Part shown: one piece after another, positions 2-64,000 of the stretch
Layout of the letters: every line of letters begins with the position of its first letter
How positions within the stretch are numbered: position 1 is the stretch's first letter
DNA from: an uncultured Acidobacteriota bacterium
GTDB taxonomy: Bacteria; Acidobacteriota; Thermoanaerobaculia; Multivoradales; UBA5704
Direction: 5' to 3'
NCBI GenBank assembly: GCA_963770895.1
Contig: CAVYRF010000002.1
Location: 4,064,001-4,128,000, forward strand
DNA: 64,000 nt
Made by a program: the position numbers and the translations under genes
Notes under the pieces: generated by a model
Databases searched by the model: none
What the model saw: the letters and a program-made list of their open reading frames with translations, nothing else
Told to the model about the DNA's origin: nothing

Positions 2-35110
<35,109 letters not shown>

Positions 35111-37366
35111 CGCGGCGGCGCCGCCCGCTGCCGCCGGCGTGCCGCCGGACGGCGCCGCCTATGTGATCTACACCTCGGGCTCGACCGGCAGGCCCAAGGG
35201 GGTCGTGGTCAGCCATCGGGCGGCCTGCAGCCACATGGCGTGGATGTCGCGCGCCCTGGCCTGGAGCCGGCACGACCGGACGTTGCAGCGCACGTCGCCC
35301 AGCTTCGACGCCTCGGTGTGGGAGATCTGGATGCCGCTGCTGGCCGGGGGGCAGCTGGTGCTGCTGCCGCCGGGCGCCCAGGGCGACCCGTCGCTGCTGC
35401 TCGACGCCGTGGCCGCGCAGCAGGTCACGGTGCTGCAGATGGTGCCGTCGCTGCTGGGAGCTCTGCTGGAAGATCCGGCCGCCGTCGCCGCTGCGGCCGG
35501 GCTGCGCTGCCTGTGCTGCGGCGCCGAGGCGCTGCCCGCGGACCTGGTGCGGCGCTTCCACCGCTTCCTGGGCCGGCCGCACGGCGTCGCGCTGCACAAC
35601 CTGTACGGGCCCACCGAGGCGGCGATCGACGCCACCTGGTGGCCCTGCGGCGCCCAGTCTGGCGACTTGCGCGCCCGCACCCTGCCCATCGGCCGGCCGA
35701 TCGACGGCGCCGAAGCGGTGATCCTGGACGCCGGCGGCCGCCTGGTGCCTGCCGGCGTCGCCGGCGAGCTGCACCTGGGCGGCGCCTCGCTCGCGCGCGG
35801 CTACCTGGACCGCCCCGACCTGACCGCCGCGCGCTTCGTGCCGCACCCGTACGCCGCGCTGCCGGGCAGCCGCCTCTATCGCACCGGCGACCTGGGCCGC
35901 ATGCGGGCCGACGGGGTGATCGAATTCCTCGGCCGCACCGACAGCCAGGTCAAGCTGCGCGGCTTCCGCATCGAGCTGGGCGAGATCGAGGCGGCGTTGG
36001 TCGACCACCCCGGCATCGCCAGCGTCGCCGTCGTGCTGCGCGACGATCCGCCGGGCGGGCCGCGCCTGGTCGCCTACGTCGTGGCCGATACGGCGCTGGC
36101 GCCGGAGCCGCCGCCCACCGATGGCGAGCTGGCCGCCCACCTGCGCCAGCGGCTGCCCGAGCCGATGGTGCCGGCGGCGTTCGTGGCGCTGCCCGAGCTG
36201 CCGCTGACGCCCAACGGCAAGGTCGATCGCGGCCGCCTGCCGCGGCCGGCGGCGGGCGGTGCGGCGGCCGGCCAGACGGCGCCGCGCGATCACGTCGAGC
36301 TGCAGCTGGCAAAGATCTGGGGCGACCTGCTGGGCGTGGGGCCGATCGGACCGGCGGACAGCTTCTTTGCCCTGGGCGGCCACTCGCTGCTGGCCGTGCG
36401 CCTGATGAACCGCGTCGCCGCGGTCTTTGGCCAGCGCCTGCCGGTGTCGGCGCTGTTCGAGAGCCCGACGCTCGCGGCCCTGGCGGCGCGCCTGCGCCGC
36501 GGCGCCGCCGGGCCGCAGCGCCGCGACGCCCTGGTGCACCTGGCCGGCGACGGCACCGGCACGCCGCTCTTCGTGGTCCACCCGGTGGGCGGCAACGTCC
36601 TGTGCTACTGGCAGCTGGCCCACGCCGCGGGCGCCGACGCCCCGGTCTACGGGCTGCAGCTGCCCGACCTGGCGGCGCTGCCGGCGGGCGACGGGCTGGC
36701 GCCGGCCGTGGGCACCGTCGAGGCGCTGGCGGCGCACTACATCGCCGCCCTTTCCGCCATCCAGCCGCGCGGCCCCTACCGCCTGGCCGGCTGGTCGCTG
36801 GGCGGCGTCATCGCCTTCGAGATGGCGCGCCAGCTGGAGCATGCCGGCCAGCCGGTCGCCCTGCTGGCGCTGCTCGACAGCTATGCGCCGGCCGCGGCAC
36901 CCGGCGCCCGCCGGCCCACCGGCGCCGCCCTGGTGCGCCAGTTTGCCGCCGACCTCTGCGGCCTGCTGGGGCTGCCCGCCACCGCGCCGCCGTTCGACCT
37001 GCCCGCCGGCGAGGCCGCCGCCCTGCGCGCCCTGGACCGCTACGGCCGCGAGCAGGGCATCCTACCCGCCGACCTCGACAGCGCCTCGCTGCGGGAGATG
37101 TTCGCGCTCTTCAAGACCGGCGCCGCGGCGTTCGCCACCTACCGTCCCGCCCCCTACCACGGCGGCCCGGTCCTGCTGTTCACCGCCGAAGACACCGGCG
37201 CCGCCGCCGCCGACCCCACCCGCGGCTGGCAGGCGCTCGCACCGGCCGGCCTGGACGTGAGGCCGCTCGCCGGCAACCACTACGCCATGGTCAGGCAGCC
37301 CGCCATCGCCGCCATCGCCGCCGCCCTGCGCGCGCCGGCCATCCCGCGCATCACGCCGCCGGCCTG

Positions 37367-37393
37367 AGCGCCGCGCTCCAGGTCAGCGGCGCT
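37367..37393 (+). terminator. Possible GC hairpin immediately after the NRPS-1 stop (weak terminator candidate)
   Basis: AGCGCCGC (37367-37374) pairs with GCGGCGCT (37386-37393) around an 11-nt loop. There is no U-tract. Confidence 0.25.
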
Positions 37394-37432
37394 TGGAAGT
37401 CATCAGGCCGACCCGATAAGAGCCAACCCCGC

Positions 37433-37450
37433 TAGAATGAGCGTAGGAGG
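37433..37450 (+). promoter_or_regulatory. Putative -10 box (TAGAAT) and ribosome-binding site (AGGAGG) of the toxin-antitoxin operon
   Basis: TAGAAT at 37433-37438. AGGAGG at 37445-37450, 8 nt before GTG 37459. No convincing -35 box. Confidence 0.45.
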
Positions 37451-37458
37451 ATGCAACC

Positions 37459-37701
37459 GTGGTGCAGAACTCCCTCACTATCGACGAGCTCTACGAGCAA
37501 CAGGTCCGTACGCGTTCGCTGCGGGATCGTTTGCGGCTGGCGCAGCGCATCCTCGCCGAAGCCGCAGACGCCGCTCCAGCGAGCGATGAGCGTCAGCGCA
37601 GTCTGCTCGAACTGGAAGGATTGGGTGCTGAGCATTGGGGCTCGGCAGACGCGCAGGAGTACGTGGAGCGCCTGCGGCAAGAGTGGGACGGCGGCCATTG
37701 A
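37459..37701 (+). CDS. Putative antitoxin (80 aa) of a VapBC-like type II TA pair
   Basis: Strong RBS and small charged protein. The C-terminal SLLELEGLGAEHW..DAQEYVERLRQEW segment resembles small proteins found upstream of PIN toxins. Its TGA overlaps the toxin TTG start (TTGA). Confidence 0.75.
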   Translation: MVQNSLTIDELYEQQVRTRSLRDRLRLAQRILAEAADAAPASDERQRSLLELEGLGAEHWGSADAQEYVERLRQEWDGGH

Positions 37702-38138
37702 ACCTTGAGGCCTTTTCGGCGGTCACCAAGCTTGGCCTCGATACTGCGCCCCTGATCTATCTGGTCGAACGGCATCCAACCTTCGGCCCCCTCGTGCGCA
37801 CCCTCGTCGAGCGAGCAGAGGGCGGTGGCATCGAGTTCATCTCCTCAACGTTGACCCTCACCGAGGTGCTGAGCCTGCCGCTCGAACGGAACGACGAGGC
37901 CACGGTCAGCGCCTATCGCTCGATACTTCTCCATAGCCCCTATCTGCACCTGCGGCCCATCGACCTCGAATCCGCCGAGCGGGCGGCCCGTCTCCGAGCG
38001 ACTCATCGCTTGAAGACTCCCGACGCGCTCCAGGTTGCGGTGGCCAGCCAAGCCGGCTGTGAAGCCTTCCTGACCAACGACCGCTCCCTGCGCCGGGTGA
38101 CCGAGATCAAGGTCCTGGTGCTTGCAGATCTGATCTAG
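37698..38138 (+). CDS. vapC: PIN-domain VapC-family toxin (ribonuclease), about 146 aa
   Basis: LGLDTAPLIY, TLTEVL, LKTPDALQVA and FLTNDRSL carry the conserved PIN acidic residues. Start placed at TTG 37698, coupled to the antitoxin stop. Confidence 0.88.
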   Translation: MNLEAFSAVTKLGLDTAPLIYLVERHPTFGPLVRTLVERAEGGGIEFISSTLTLTEVLSLPLERNDEATVSAYRSILLHSPYLHLRPIDLESAERAARLRATHRLKTPDALQVAVASQAGCEAFLTNDRSLRRVTEIKVLVLADLI

Positions 38139-39305
38139 TGTAGTGCGCCCTAATTAGGAATCCTTATATGCGGTTCGTACGTATCGTCCTGTGGGAGGAT
38201 TGGGACGATGCGGATCGCACCGTTGGTTCTGGTTTCGCCGGAGGAAAGGCGGCAGTTGGAGGCCTATGCCCGAGGCCGCAGCACGCCGACGCGTCTGGTG
38301 CAGCGCGCGAAGATCGTCTTGCTGGCCGCCGAGGGCAAGGAGAATCGGGAAATTGCCGAAAGTCTTGGCATCATGCGGCATACCGTCGGACGTTGGCGGA
38401 GCCGCTTTTGCCAGTTCGGCCTGAGCGGGATCGAGAAAGACGCGCATCGAAGTGGGCGCCTGCCGAGCCTGTCCCAGGGCTTGCTACGGAAGATCGTGCG
38501 CAAGACAACGCAAGAGACGCCGCAGGACGGCACTCATTGGAGCACGCGGAGCATGGCCGAGGCGGTCGGGGTCAGCGCCTCGACGGTGCGCCGGGTCTGG
38601 CAGCGGCACGGCCTCAAGCCTCATCGGGTGCGGACCTTCAAGCTGAGCAACGATCGACGCTTTGTCGAGAAAATGGAAGATGTCATCGCGCTCTATCTCA
38701 ACCCGCCAGAGCACGCCCTCGTCTTGTGTGCCGATGAGAAGAGCCAGATCCAGGCTCTTGATCGGACTCAACCCGGCCTGCCGATGAAGAAGGGCCGCTG
38801 CGGCACGATGACGCACGACTACAAGCGCAATGGCACCACGACGTTATTCGCGGCCTTGAGTACGCTGGACGGTAAAGTCATCGGTAGCTGCATGCCGAGG
38901 CACCGCCACCAGGAGTGGTTGAAGTTCCTCAAACAAATCGATCGGGAGACACCCGCAGCCAAGCAAATCCACCTGATCGCCGACAACTATGGCACCCACA
39001 AGCACGCGGTCGTTCTACGCTGGATCGCTCGGCATCCGCGATTTCACCTTCATTTCACTCCGACCAGTGCCTCCTGGCTCAACATGGTCGAACGCTTCTT
39101 CCGACACCTGACCGAGAAGCAAATTTCCCGTGGAGTGTTCCGCAGTGTCGACCAGCTCGAATCCGCGATTCTGGGGGCGATCGAGCGGCACAACTCTGAT
39201 CCTAAACCCTACATCTGGACGGCTAAGGCTGCTGACATCCTCGAAAAGGTCAAGAGAGCACGTCTCAGACTGAATAAGGTCCCATCTGTGTGACGCACTA
39301 CACTA
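38136..39305 (+). mobile_element. Complete IS630-family insertion sequence (38138-39303, 1166 bp) with duplicated TA target
   Basis: Left end reads cTA|GTGTAGTGCGCCC..CCTTAT and right end reads ATAAGG..TGACGCACTACAC|TAg. The terminal 10 bp are a perfect inverted repeat within an imperfect IR of about 30 bp. TA at 38136-37 and 39304-05 sits in a CTAG target, typical of IS630. Confidence 0.92.
38208..39293 (+). CDS. IS630-family DDE transposase (361 aa), apparently intact
   Basis: N-terminal HTH region (THWSTRSMA), plus [45 protein letters not shown] and [16 protein letters not shown]. Confidence 0.96.
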
Positions 39306-39370
39306 GAAGAATCGTTTCGGCCTGCCGCCGGACCCCTGGCCGCTGTCGCTGAAAACGGCTGGCCGGCGGT

Positions 39371-41647
39371 TCAGGCGGGGGTGAGGCCGGATTGGGGGTC
39401 GCGGCGGGCGCGGCTGTCGGTGCGGTAGAGGCGGGCGCCGGGGTGCGGGCTCCAGGGATCAGGGAGGAAGCGCTCGGCGGTGAGGTCGGCGCGGCCCAGG
39501 TAGCCGCGGGCGACGCCGGCGCCGCCGACGAAGAGCTGGCCGACCTCGCCGGCGGCGACGGGCTGCAGGCTGCCGTCCAGGAGGTGGAGCTGGGCGTCGG
39601 CGGGGGCCAGGGCGGCGGCGGCCTGGGGGTCGCCGGCCAGGTGGCGGGCCAGCGCCGGGGCGCAGTGCAGGTGGGTGGTGGCGCGGCCGGCGAGCGCGGC
39701 TTGCAGGCTGGGGTGGGCGGCGGCGGGAGCATGGGCTGCGGTGGGCGGCGCGGGCGTAGTGCGGCGGCGCAGTTGGTCCAGGTTGCCCAGGGCGGCCAGC
39801 ACGTCGTCGGTCGGGGCGCCGAAGTCGATCAGGCAGGCGACCTCATCCACCTCCATGCGGCGCAGGCGTTCCAGGGTGCGGGCGCAGCTGTCGGGTGTGC
39901 CGATCAGGCCCGAGCCCTCGGCGACGTAGCGGTCGTAGGCGCGGCCGACCAGCAGGTCCAGTTGGGCGCCGGCCAGATCCTTGGGATCGCTGTCCAGGCC
40001 GACGCTGGCGGCCAGCGAGCGCAGCAGGCCGAAGGAGGTCTTGAGGTAGGCGCTGAGCGGTTCGCGCACCACGCGGTGCACTTCGTCCAGGGTGGCGCCG
40101 ACGTAGGTGTGGAGCATCACCGTCACGGTGCCGATGCCGGGGTGGCCGGCCTGGCGCCAAGCCTGGCGATAGACGCGGATCTTGCTTGCCACTTCGTCGG
40201 CTTCCTGGCCCAGCATGTGGGTCAGGACGCCGGCGCCGACCTCGCCGGCCAGGCGGAAGGTTTCGGGGTTGCCGGCGGCGGTGACCCAGACCGGCAGCTC
40301 GGGTTGCACCGGCCGCGGGAAGATGCGCACCGGCACCTGGTTGCCGGCGCCGCCGGGCAGGCTCAGGGCTTCGCCGCGCCACAGGCGGCGGACGGTTTCG
40401 ATGCCGCGCGTCATCACCTCCTGGCGGTCGGCGTAGGCGGCGGGATTGAGCACGAAGTCGTTGGCGTGCCAGCCCGAGGCGAACGACACGCCGACGCGGC
40501 CGCCCGACAGGTTGTCGACCAGCGACCACTCTTCGGCGACCAGCAGCGGGTTGTGCAGCGGCAGGACGACGCTGCCGGCGCGGATGAGCAGGCGCTCGGT
40601 CGACGCGGCGATGGCGGCGCTCATCACCGCCGGGCTGGGGTAGAGGCCGCCGAACTCGTGGAAGTGGCGCTCCGGCGTCCAGATGGCGTGGAAGCCATTG
40701 CGGTCGCCAAAGCGCGCCCCTTCGAGCACCAGGCGATAGTGGTCGGCGGTCTTGCCCGCGGTGTAGTTGCCAAAATAGAACAGGCTGAAGGCCAGCGGGC
40801 GGTCGGCGGGGCTGGCGGCGGCCGTGGCGGCAGCGGCGGTGGCCGTGGGGGAAGCGACGGTGGCGGCTCGTGCGCCCGGCGCATCGTGGGTCGTCGCGAC
40901 GGCCCGCGTGGCTGCGGGCTGGTCGCCGTCGAGCCGCAGCGGGCCTTCCCGCAACAGCGTCCACAGCATCTCGACGGGCTCCAGGTCGGGCGCGGATGGA
41001 CCTGTCGGCGCGCCGGCCATGCTTGCTTCGCCGGCGTCGCTGGCCGGGTTGGCGGCGCCGTGGTCGTCCGGGCGTCCGTCGCCGGCGGCCAGCAGGCCGG
41101 CGAGGGTGCTGTGGCTGACCATTATGCCGTGAGGGAGACCGGTTGCGCCGGAGCGGTAGAGCACCCAGGCAAGGCTGTCGCCGGTGACGGCCGGCGGGGG
41201 AGGCGCCGTCGGCGATGATGGCGAGGGGCTGGGCGCGCCGGCGGCGGCTGGCTCTGGATCGCCCAGCCACACGACCGGCACGCGGTGCGGCGGCAGGCGG
41301 CGTGCCAGCGACCGATGGAGGAGGATGGCCTTGGGACGGGCGGCGCCCAGGATCTGCGCCAGGCGTCCCGGCGGCTGGGTGGCATCCAGGCAGGCGCAGG
41401 CGCCGCCCGCTTTCAGCACGGCCAGGAGCGCCACCGGCAGATCCGGCGAGCGCGGTACCAGCACGGCGACGATCGCTTCGGCGCCCACGCCCAGCTGGCG
41501 CAGGCGGGCCGCCAGGTCGCCGGCATTGGCGTCCAGCTCCGCCCAGGTGAGCGAGCGGTCAGAGCCGGTGACGGCGACGTCGCCGGGCGCCGCCGCGACG
41601 CGGGCGGCCAGCAGGCTGACAAGGGTGCGATCGGGCTGTTCGCTCAT
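39371..41647 (-). CDS. Luciferase-like flavin monooxygenase (natural-product LLM, MupA/Atu3671-like) embedded in a degenerate A-domain shell; no C or T domain
   Basis: LLM core (about 40790-39765): [65 protein letters not shown] and [11 protein letters not shown]. Flanking A remnants: [38 protein letters not shown] and LYRTDS. Start taken as ATG 41647 (MSEQPD); ATG 41698 is an alternative. Confidence 0.9.
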
Positions 41648-41885
41648 CGGGCGTAGGGACTTGCGATCGGCGGCTGCGACGCCGGCAGACGATACCATGC
41701 CGGGCCCCCGGCTTGGACAGGTAAAGCCCTGCTTGCCAAGCATTTGGCGCGCTTCAGGGGAGGCCTGCCGGGAGCTTCCCAAGATCTGTCGCCCATCTAA
41801 GGAACGAAGTTGGTAAAGTGCTGGCGCCGGTGCCCGCCACCTCCGGCAGTCGTGCAACTGCGATCTCGCAGGAAGGAGATCCTCG
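41648..41885. promoter_or_regulatory. Divergent intergenic region between the LLM gene and NRPS-2, including the NRPS-2 RBS
   Basis: Lower-GC stretch between oppositely oriented starts. GGAAGGAG at 41871-41878 lies 7 nt before GTG 41886. No promoter boxes were identified with confidence. Confidence 0.55.

Positions 41886-64000
<22,115 letters not shown>

Follow-up and report, generated by a model that had tools for sequence, protein, structure and literature searches.

Luciferase-like monooxygenases (LLMs) are already known as insertions that interrupt the adenylation (A) domains of nonribosomal peptide synthetases (NRPSs), and also as free-standing hydroxylases. MupA, CalD, and OocM, for instance, consist of the LLM alone. 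Here we analyze a gene that encodes a free-standing LLM that is still enclosed in the remains of an A domain. The gene lies on the minus strand of a 64,000-nucleotide stretch of DNA (the window) from an uncultured Acidobacteriota bacterium (GTDB lineage Thermoanaerobaculia; Multivoradales; UBA5704; assembly GCA_963770895.1, contig CAVYRF010000002.1, positions 4,064,001 to 4,128,000).

Three described systems are closest to this gene. In MtaG and MelG, the LLM lies between core motifs a4 and a5 of a glycine-type A domain, and the accepted proposal is that the LLM hydroxylates the alpha carbon of the carrier-bound glycine (PMC11411415, PMC9396620). MupA is a dimeric, trans-acting alpha-hydroxylase that depends on reduced flavin mononucleotide (FMNH2) and acts on a beta-keto thioester bound to an acyl carrier protein (ACP); this activity has been demonstrated in vitro, the MupA cluster holds no reductase, and the enzyme is served by one encoded outside the cluster (PMC10952193). 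Finally, the Ox domain of PuwE, from the puwainaphycin polyketide synthase (PKS)/NRPS hybrid, is proposed to hydroxylate position 2 of an acyl chain that is bound to an ACP (PMC4219810).

What is new at our locus is a free-standing LLM with a hinge-truncated and apparently dead A core that has been kept through a radiation of at least 35 sequence clusters. Our literature search, which lay largely outside subscription journals, turned up no description of a free-standing LLM in a dead A-domain shell.

An intact LLM in the remains of an adenylation domain

The predicted protein of 758 amino acids (aa) matches TIGR04020 over the full length of the model (aa 287–627 to model positions 1–341 of 341), with 496.6 bits against a cut-off of 244.45. 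PF00296 matches aa 299–601. PF00501 matches in two partial stretches, the better of which is aa 15–188 (profile positions 3–193 of 384), and the C-terminal A-domain piece (aa 685–748) aligns with residues 781–842 of EntF. A Pfam scan of the protein gave no match for PF13193, PF00668, or PF00550. The LLM begins with FSLFYFG at aa 287 and sits between the a4 and a5 zones, as it does in the intact in-cis relatives. The rest of the protein, which we call the shell, is 417 of the 758 aa, in line with the roughly 400 aa given by a previous interpretation of this gene from the DNA letters and open reading frames (ORFs) only (the sequence-only reading).

We read the shell against intact in-cis modules of related genomes. 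Motifs a1 and a2 are recognizable. The a3 P-loop at aa 159 is degenerate: the window protein and P0004, a metagenome protein, have YRSGA(T/N)GLPHG. The remnant of a4 at aa 222 is eroded. After the LLM and the segment TTHLHCAP, alignment to the intact modules shows that the a5 zone (NMYGPTE and about 40 aa more) is deleted, while a6 is intact (GAGVARGYL, aa 703). The a7 motif reads YRTDS at aa 741, the stop follows 13 codons further on, and nothing remains beyond a7: a8–a10 and the thiolation (T) domain are missing. The translation and these alignments agree with the sequence-only reading, which had placed the LLM after an eroded a4 and before TTHLHCAP and had noted the mutated P-loop, the deleted a5, YRTDS at a7, and the absence of a8–a10 and T.

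Because a3 is degenerate, a5 deleted, a7 spoiled, and a8–a10 absent, we predict, as the sequence-only reading did, that the adenylation core is catalytically dead. Its score for the A-domain model TIGR01733 (173.5 bits) is also under the cut-off (317.4), and the C-terminal sub-domain with the a8 hinge and the a10 lysine is lacking. Nor is this an in-cis module: the 758-aa ORF stands alone on the minus strand, without a condensation (C) domain or a T domain. It is free-standing like the LLM-only proteins of the MupA/CalD/OocM type, yet 417 of its 758 aa are former A domain.

The sequence-only reading had called the domain glycine-type. This holds for the lineage: the in-cis relatives read D-I-L-Q..M-V-W at the specificity positions, which we take to be a glycine code. 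The code of the window protein itself is eroded, as it reads D-L-V-H and the remaining code positions are deleted.

The LLM appears to be intact, as had been claimed. Across 78 stand-alone and in-cis sequences, 65 columns are invariant, and 61 of these are within the LLM; the window protein retains all 61, including WTPERHFH. The nearest solved structure is the PuwE Ox domain (6KET; 50% identity, E = 9e-117). In an AlphaFold model of the protein, the LLM has the expected TIM-barrel fold, with pLDDT mostly above 90, and superimposes on 6KET with a target-normalized TM score of 0.93 and an rmsd of 2.4 over 346 columns. For the whole protein, pLDDT is 80.6 and pTM is 0.58. Besides the LLM, aa 4–130, 146–190, 219–242, and 683–758 are confidently folded in the model, and aa 131–145, 191–218, 243–276, and 637–670 are disordered. 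The same genome also contains stand-alone LLM-only paralogs of 389–398 aa, so the LLM fold does not need a shell.

The truncated form is shared by a clade of stand-alone proteins

The sequence-only reading had suggested looking for proteins with the same truncated architecture. We searched 5.8 billion proteins within a length band of 416–1327 aa, and of 8000 scored candidates, 1575 matched with E ≤ 1e-30. The best 35 matches, which include the window's own record, are 55–100% identical to the query and 512–836 aa long, and they contain PF00296 and PF00501 only. The truncated form is thus shared by 34 further clusters, at 55–83% identity, from metagenome-assembled genomes (MAGs), assigned to Thermoanaerobaculia or Acidobacteria in those records that name a source, and from soil metagenomes. 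From rank 36 on, identity does not exceed 50%, and C, T, and AMP-binding_C domains are present. The exception is P0043 (481 aa, 77% identity over 47% of the query), a clade-like fragment that is outside our counts. Among longer proteins (1328–3790 aa), we found 5261 relatives with E ≤ 1e-50, none of them more than 51% identical, and no close fused relative.

Next, we put the window protein into one alignment with the other 34; four of these 35 sequences are fragments that lack the N-terminus. The P-loop is intact in none of the 31 members that have the a3 region, and a8 is found in none of the 35. The N-terminal part of the shell is present in all 31 members with a complete N-terminus. The C-terminal part is more variable. 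Motif a6 is retained in 25 of the 35, and an a7-like motif is found near the C-terminal end of 24, all of which end about 10–15 residues past it. A degenerate a5 (e.g., SLYGRTETTGWS) is retained in 13 members; in 12 others, including the window protein, a6–a7 is present and the a5 zone is deleted; and the entire C-terminal piece is gone from 10 (P0024–P0030 and P0034–P0036).

In a maximum-likelihood tree of the LLM part of 31 stand-alone and 47 in-cis sequences, all 31 stand-alone sequences form a single clade (support 1.0) on a long stem. Because this clade is nested among modules with intact motifs, the protein descends from in-cis A domains interrupted by a monooxygenase, or A(MOx) modules, which is the ancestry that had been proposed. 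Also, since the close relatives share the truncated form and none is a full A-MOx-T, the truncation after a7, at the hinge that precedes the A sub-domain, is ancestral to the clade. The sequence-only reading had allowed that close relatives with a full A-MOx-T would make this copy a decaying pseudogene. Instead, the close relatives are truncated and the longer proteins are at most 51% identical; this is not a lone decaying copy.

We also surveyed 41 genomes of the same order. Six other genomes of the window's genus (G001, G003, G004, G006, G007, and G008) hold a copy that is 60–69% identical, in open frames of up to 1139 aa, with two of the six cut by contig ends. We saw no copy in G002, G005, or G009, all of which are incomplete MAGs. 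The matches listed for other genera, all with E of about 1e-100 or better, are of two kinds: in-cis copies in frames of about 1,100–9,300 aa, and frames of about 370–670 aa that align with the LLM part only. In-cis relatives are very common.

Selection differs across the protein

To quantify constraint, we computed dN/dS (omega) by the Nei-Gojobori method (NG86) with a codon bootstrap for five ortholog pairs. Omega for the LLM is 0.10–0.26 (0.24–0.26 for the pairs that include the window), with intervals below 1. For a1–a2 (aa 1–110), it is 0.37–0.61 and the interval excludes 1 in all five pairs; for a6–a7 (aa 683–745), it is 0.30 and 0.47, and 1 is excluded in both of the pairs that have this piece. 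For aa 111–284, which include a linker, the dead a3 and a4, and the linker before the LLM, omega is 0.50–0.94 and the interval includes 1 in four of the five pairs. Selection is therefore a mosaic: purifying on the LLM, on a1–a2 (moderately), and on a6–a7, and about neutral in the dead a3–a4 zone. In the stand-alone proteins, dN of the shell is several-fold that of the LLM. As a control, we used a working in-cis A(MOx) pair from G008 and G003, for which omega is 0.27 for the N-terminal part of the A domain, 0.22 for the LLM, and 0.16 for the C-terminal A core, so a working A domain evolves under no less constraint than the LLM inside it.

The shell thus fits only half of what the sequence-only reading gave as grounds for abandoning its scaffold proposal, namely that the shell be dispensable and unconserved: the C-terminal piece is gone from 10 of the 35 members and a3–a4 is neutral, but a1–a2 and a6–a7 are under purifying selection.

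Individual residues show a similar pattern. Of the shell positions that are conserved in the 47 in-cis sequences, 22 are lost in the clade (mainly in a3, in a4, and at the a2 lysine), and 23 structural positions are common to both groups. Another 15 shell positions are conserved solely in the clade, including PPGRLAQ and an invariant R117-L118-P119-P120; most of these 15 are within the a1–a2 part (T8 to P105, A107). The LLM has 33 conserved positions that are specific to the clade, along with one inserted residue.

Gene boundaries

The frame 39371..41857 (−) is open, and the ATG at 41647 gives the 758-aa product, which starts with MSEQPDR. The same protein is in the public collection as P0003 (775 aa). 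That record begins 17 codons upstream, so the start is at either 41647 or 41698 (Table 1). G+C at third codon positions (GC3) is 0.84–0.97 in the frame of 39371..41647 (−), which fits a real gene. Because the window is about 75% G+C and has long open frames by chance on both strands, we picked frames by third-position G+C. Two antisense frames opposite the NRPS genes, 2..24406 (−) and 48387..58430 (−), run to 8135 and 3347 codons; they are a by-product of the 75% G+C and are not genes.

The 3' end of the gene is not an assembly slip: P0004, which is 83% identical to the window protein, has the same last 18 residues, and a soil-metagenome contig shows 0 differences from the window at 39278–39428. 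(This contig was found by comparing contigs of four soil runs, which are short pieces, with 34000–42300.) We considered whether a frameshift might conceal a8–a10 downstream and rejected this, as there is no A-domain sequence in the three minus-strand frames below the stop.

Table 1. Coordinates of the stand-alone gene, its parts, and adjacent features in the window.
Feature	Position	Strand	Extent	Remarks
Stand-alone A(N)-LLM-A(C) gene	39371..41647	−	758 aa	Alternative start at 41698; from ORF, family scans, and GC3
Luciferase-like FMN monooxygenase (LLM), TIGR04020	39767..40789	−	aa 287–627	
Shell a1–a2 subdomain	41318..41647	−	aa 1–110	Folded in model; moderate purifying selection
Degenerate a3 P-loop	41114..41173	−	aa 159–178	
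Eroded a4	40943..40993	−	aa 219–235	
TTHLHCAP, A-core segment after insertion point	39656..39679	−	aa 657–664	
Shell a6–a7 piece	39413..39601	−	aa 683–745	a7 is YRTDS; stop codon at 39371–39373
Divergent intergenic region, this gene/NRPS-2	41648..41885		238 bp	
N-terminal ACP-type carrier (LGLDSL) of NRPS-2	42081..42230	+	aa 66–115	Conserved neighbor; candidate substrate carrier
IS630-family element	38134..39307	+		DDE_3 transposase at 38208–39293

Genome neighborhood

The gene lies between two NRPS genes, NRPS-1 beyond its 3' end and NRPS-2 beyond its 5' end. NRPS-2 (41886 onward) is transcribed divergently. From Pfam windows and motifs, we read its domain order as ACP(LGLDSL)-C-A-T-T-C-(A remnant)-T-C-A-T-C-A-T-C-A(FkbM methyltransferase)-T-C-A-T-TE, where TE is a thioesterase. 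The A domain of module 2 is reduced to an a6–a7 remnant of about 60 residues (48170–48360 (+), aa ~2097–2156), which matches an intact A domain at 45% over 62 aa (pairwise BLAST, E = 1e-9); the linker gives no Pfam match even at E ≤ 1. Module 2, which is C-(remnant)-T, has no means of loading itself, and module 1 before it has a tandem T-T.

We compared this arrangement with the relatives. In G004, the gene and an NRPS are head to head, as in the window's genome (G000). In G003 and G001, a major facilitator superfamily (MFS) transporter, a lysine/ornithine N-monooxygenase, and a MacB permease lie between the gene and the NRPS (L014 1826–8794; L017), and the content of these clusters suggests a hydroxamate-containing product. 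Overall, a divergent NRPS that starts with ACP-C is present in four of the five genomes with enough flank (G000, G004, G003, and G001). The ACPs at the start of these four NRPSs are orthologous: they are 45–49% identical, contain RSLxAxGLDSL, and are followed by a C domain. The first A domains of the partner NRPSs differ. That of G000 has a DVWH-like code, presumably for serine; those of G003 and G001 read DILQ..M.IW, presumably for glycine; and that of G004 is unlike either. What these NRPSs have in common is therefore the ACP-C start.

The sequence-only reading had listed both NRPSs as candidate targets. The conserved ACP-C neighbor keeps the acyl-ACP of NRPS-2 as a candidate. The T domains of NRPS-1 are unlikely targets because NRPS-1 has its own TE, a PIN gene and an insertion sequence (IS) intervene, and the four relatives whose contigs extend past the 3' end of the gene (G001, G003, G004, and G008) show no NRPS there.

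We considered three ways in which the gene might be tied to the modules around it. NRPS-1 (seemingly ending in C) and NRPS-2 (starting with T) are not a split module that is served by this protein, as NRPS-1 continues into A-T-TE. Nor is there support for the idea that the gene and the N-terminal carrier of NRPS-2 were once a single A(MOx)-T loading module: the carrier is of the ACP type (LGLDSL), T domains that come after an in-cis A(MOx) resemble it no more than other T domains do, and its best matches are within NRPS-1 and NRPS-2 (E ≥ 4e-4). Finally, we reject a general pairing of the shell with an A-less C-T module, as this module is found in G000 only; the G003 NRPS lacks it, and so do those parts of the G004 and G001 NRPSs that we read.

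NRPS-1, given as 2..35110 in the ORF list, changes frame near 34625–34640, in a C-A linker (between DLELMSG and ERHQALLEW). NRPS-1 actually finishes with the A-T-TE in the frame of 34692..37367 (+), and the ORF as listed is out of frame up to 35110. The frame change may be genuine (a split gene or a pseudogene) or an indel from assembly, and the short soil contigs do not settle which. Between NRPS-1 and the IS, where G+C is lower, there is a gene for a PIN-domain (VapC-like) protein (37635–38138). Together with a small ORF upstream of it (region 37461–38138 (+)), it is probably a toxin-antitoxin pair.

The IS630-family element has perfect 14-nt inverted repeats (38134–38147 and 39294–39307) and ends 63 bp past the stop of the LLM gene. 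The genome contains four identical full copies, as well as one partial copy, so the insertion is recent, and the element appears to have been active recently. We rejected the IS as the cause of the truncation because the element is recent and lies 63 bp past the stop, and because relatives at 55–65% identity are equally truncated.

Some other features of these clusters are worth recording. An FkbM-type methyltransferase (PF05050) is inserted late in the module-5 A domain of NRPS-2 (58719–59279 (+)). Several in-cis A domains at other loci (L011, L012, L018, and L019) are interrupted twice, by an LLM between a4 and a5 and, past a8, by an FkbM-like methyltransferase, and PF00296 and PF05050 occur together in many of the long in-cis matches. 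Past the TE of NRPS-2 (L020, G000:C2:4128001–4148000), there are genes for a cupin protein whose tail is anticodon-binding-like, a DAO-type FAD oxidase, a MetRS-like paralog of class I synthetases, a (flavin-dependent) enzyme of the tryptophan-halogenase family, and a MacB permease. The MetRS-like gene may serve in self-resistance or in tailoring. The genes downstream of NRPS-2 do not include a flavin reductase.

Proposed function and alternatives

We infer the enzyme's activity, its substrate, and any role of the shell from these observations. We think that the protein is probably a trans-acting, FMNH2-dependent LLM, likely an alpha-hydroxylase of a carrier-bound thioester on an NRPS-2-type assembly line, with a dead A shell that is partly vestigial. 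That it would be a trans-acting oxygenase of carrier thioesters is suggested by the precedents of PuwE, MupA, and MtaG/MelG. In this proposal, a free-standing LLM of the MupA/Atu3671 family would have arisen once from an in-cis glycine-type A(MOx) module, in an ancestor within the Thermoanaerobaculia. The same event would have removed the A sub-domain (a8–a10) and the carrier domain, and adenylation chemistry would have been lost. With reduced FMN supplied by a reductase that is encoded elsewhere, the LLM would form a flavin hydroperoxide and would most likely hydroxylate the alpha carbon of a thioester on a carrier of the divergently transcribed NRPS; the acyl group on the N-terminal ACP of NRPS-2 is the candidate substrate that is best backed by synteny. 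The constraint on a1–a2, and on a6–a7 where it is retained, would probably reflect folding or solubility and possibly contact with the synthetase. Neutral drift would be under way in the site that once bound ATP and substrate, and the C-terminal piece would be in the course of being lost, lineage by lineage.

Several points weigh against this proposal. The candidate substrate is taken from the gene neighborhood alone. In G003 and G001, three genes (for the MFS transporter, the Lys/Orn N-monooxygenase, and the MacB permease) come before the NRPS, and in G008 there is no NRPS within the roughly 4 kb of contig upstream. The 33 clade-specific positions in the LLM may mean that its substrate differs from that of the in-cis relatives. 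With the module-2 A domain of NRPS-2 reduced to an a6–a7 remnant, the cluster in this genome may not be fully functional. As for the gene and its shell, ORFs are weak evidence at 75% G+C, given that antisense frames reach thousands of codons, and the high model confidence of the shell may stem from functional A domains among the aligned sequences. Also, the dN/dS pairs share branches and there is a single in-cis control pair, while NG86 is crude and dS is hard to estimate at GC3 near 0.95.

The shell might do more than we propose. The dead A core may have been exapted as a docking adaptor, in which a1–a2 (and a6–a7) binds a surface of the NRPS and delivers the LLM to the carrier; the partner could be the ACP-C start or a C domain of the kind that normally packs on an A core. 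Such docking is possible, and several observations favor it: purifying selection on a1–a2 in five of five pairs and on a6–a7 in two of two, the 15 clade-only shell positions (PPGRLAQ and R117-L118-P119-P120 among them), the N-terminal shell in all 31 members with a complete N-terminus, LLM-only paralogs that show the shell to be unnecessary for the LLM fold, and, in module 2 of NRPS-2, a C domain without a working A partner. On the whole we still hold such an adaptor to be unlikely, since the C-terminal piece is gone from 10 of the 35 members, the G003 NRPS and what we read of the G004 and G001 NRPSs have no A-less module, the N-terminal shell may be kept merely to provide a start codon and frame upstream of the LLM, and the constraint may serve folding alone. 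The more specific picture of a pseudo-enzyme whose a1–a2 face still fits the A-core surface of the synthetase, so that the oxygenase plugs in where an A domain would sit, is likewise doubtful.

Another idea is that the LLM acts on a free small molecule or in another pathway, such as precursor supply or tailoring after release, and that its link to NRPS-2 is merely positional. The visible flank in G008 has no NRPS, the first A domains of the neighboring NRPSs differ, and the 33 clade-specific changes suggest a new substrate. Nevertheless, a divergent ACP-C NRPS is found in four of the five genomes with enough flank, and the characterized and proposed members of the family act on carrier-bound thioesters, so we consider a free substrate improbable. 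We give even less weight to the view that the gene, LLM included, is an inert relic of a decaying cluster in this genome. The frameshift in NRPS-1, the lost module-2 A domain of NRPS-2, and the adjoining IS and PIN gene would fit this view, as would chance long open frames at 75% G+C, but omega for the LLM is 0.24–0.26 on the pairs with the window, all 61 LLM columns that are invariant in 78 sequences are retained, and the 83% identical relative has the same ends. It is hardly conceivable that the A core still adenylates, whether it borrows an A sub-domain encoded elsewhere or uses a non-canonical mechanism: the window protein and P0004 do have the least eroded P-loop of the clade, YRSGA(T/N)GLPHG, but a5 is deleted, a7 is spoiled, a8–a10 are absent, none of the 31 members with the a3 region has an intact P-loop, a3 and a4 positions that are conserved in working modules are lost, and TIGR01733 is under its cut-off.

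Implications

A free-standing LLM that has long kept a dead, hinge-truncated A core is a conserved hybrid, with members down to 55% identity, that bridges the interrupted A domains and the free-standing LLM hydroxylases. The clade is also a natural erosion series (a5 kept, a5 deleted, or the C-terminal piece gone) that could indicate the parts of an A core on which an inserted enzyme depends, and it may offer natural boundaries for excising LLM domains from A domains in engineering. For annotation, it is a warning that proteins of 600–840 aa from Acidobacteriota that appear to be "AMP-binding plus luciferase" are probably not loading enzymes. The clade is also a ready-made test of whether dead NRPS domains can be docking modules in trans tailoring. 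The significance of these proteins would increase if the shell were a docking adaptor: an in-cis tailoring domain would have turned into a trans enzyme that carries its old address label, which would mirror the X-domain arrangement in glycopeptide synthetases.

Comparison with known systems

The protein resembles the LLMs of MtaG and MelG, which have the arrangement C-A-MOx-A-T-TE, in belonging to the same LLM family and in having the same a4–a5 insertion site. It differs in that it has no C, T, or TE, its A halves are apparently dead and cut after a7, and it is encoded on the opposite strand from the synthetase.

Like MupA (mupirocin), CalD, and OocM, which are LLM hydroxylases of trans-acyltransferase (trans-AT) PKSs, it is free-standing and matches TIGR04020. 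It also resembles MupA in the lack of a flavin reductase in the cluster, and the substrate of MupA is a carrier-bound thioester. Unlike these enzymes, our protein carries 417 aa of former A domain. It also appears to descend from the A-inserted branch rather than the PKS-associated branch of the MupA type, although this comes from an LLM tree that does not include MupA itself.

The Ox domain of PuwE is the closest in structure (6KET, 50% identity, TM 0.93), but it is an in-cis domain that lies between PKS and NRPS modules and outside of any A domain.

A more distant parallel comes from glycopeptide synthetases, in which the X domain, of the C type and catalytically dead, recruits trans-acting P450 oxygenases. 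In both cases, a dead NRPS domain is kept, perhaps for a structural or recruitment role that links the assembly line to a trans-acting oxygenase. The X domain is on the synthetase, whereas in our clade, the dead domain travels with the oxygenase and its recruiting role is hypothetical.

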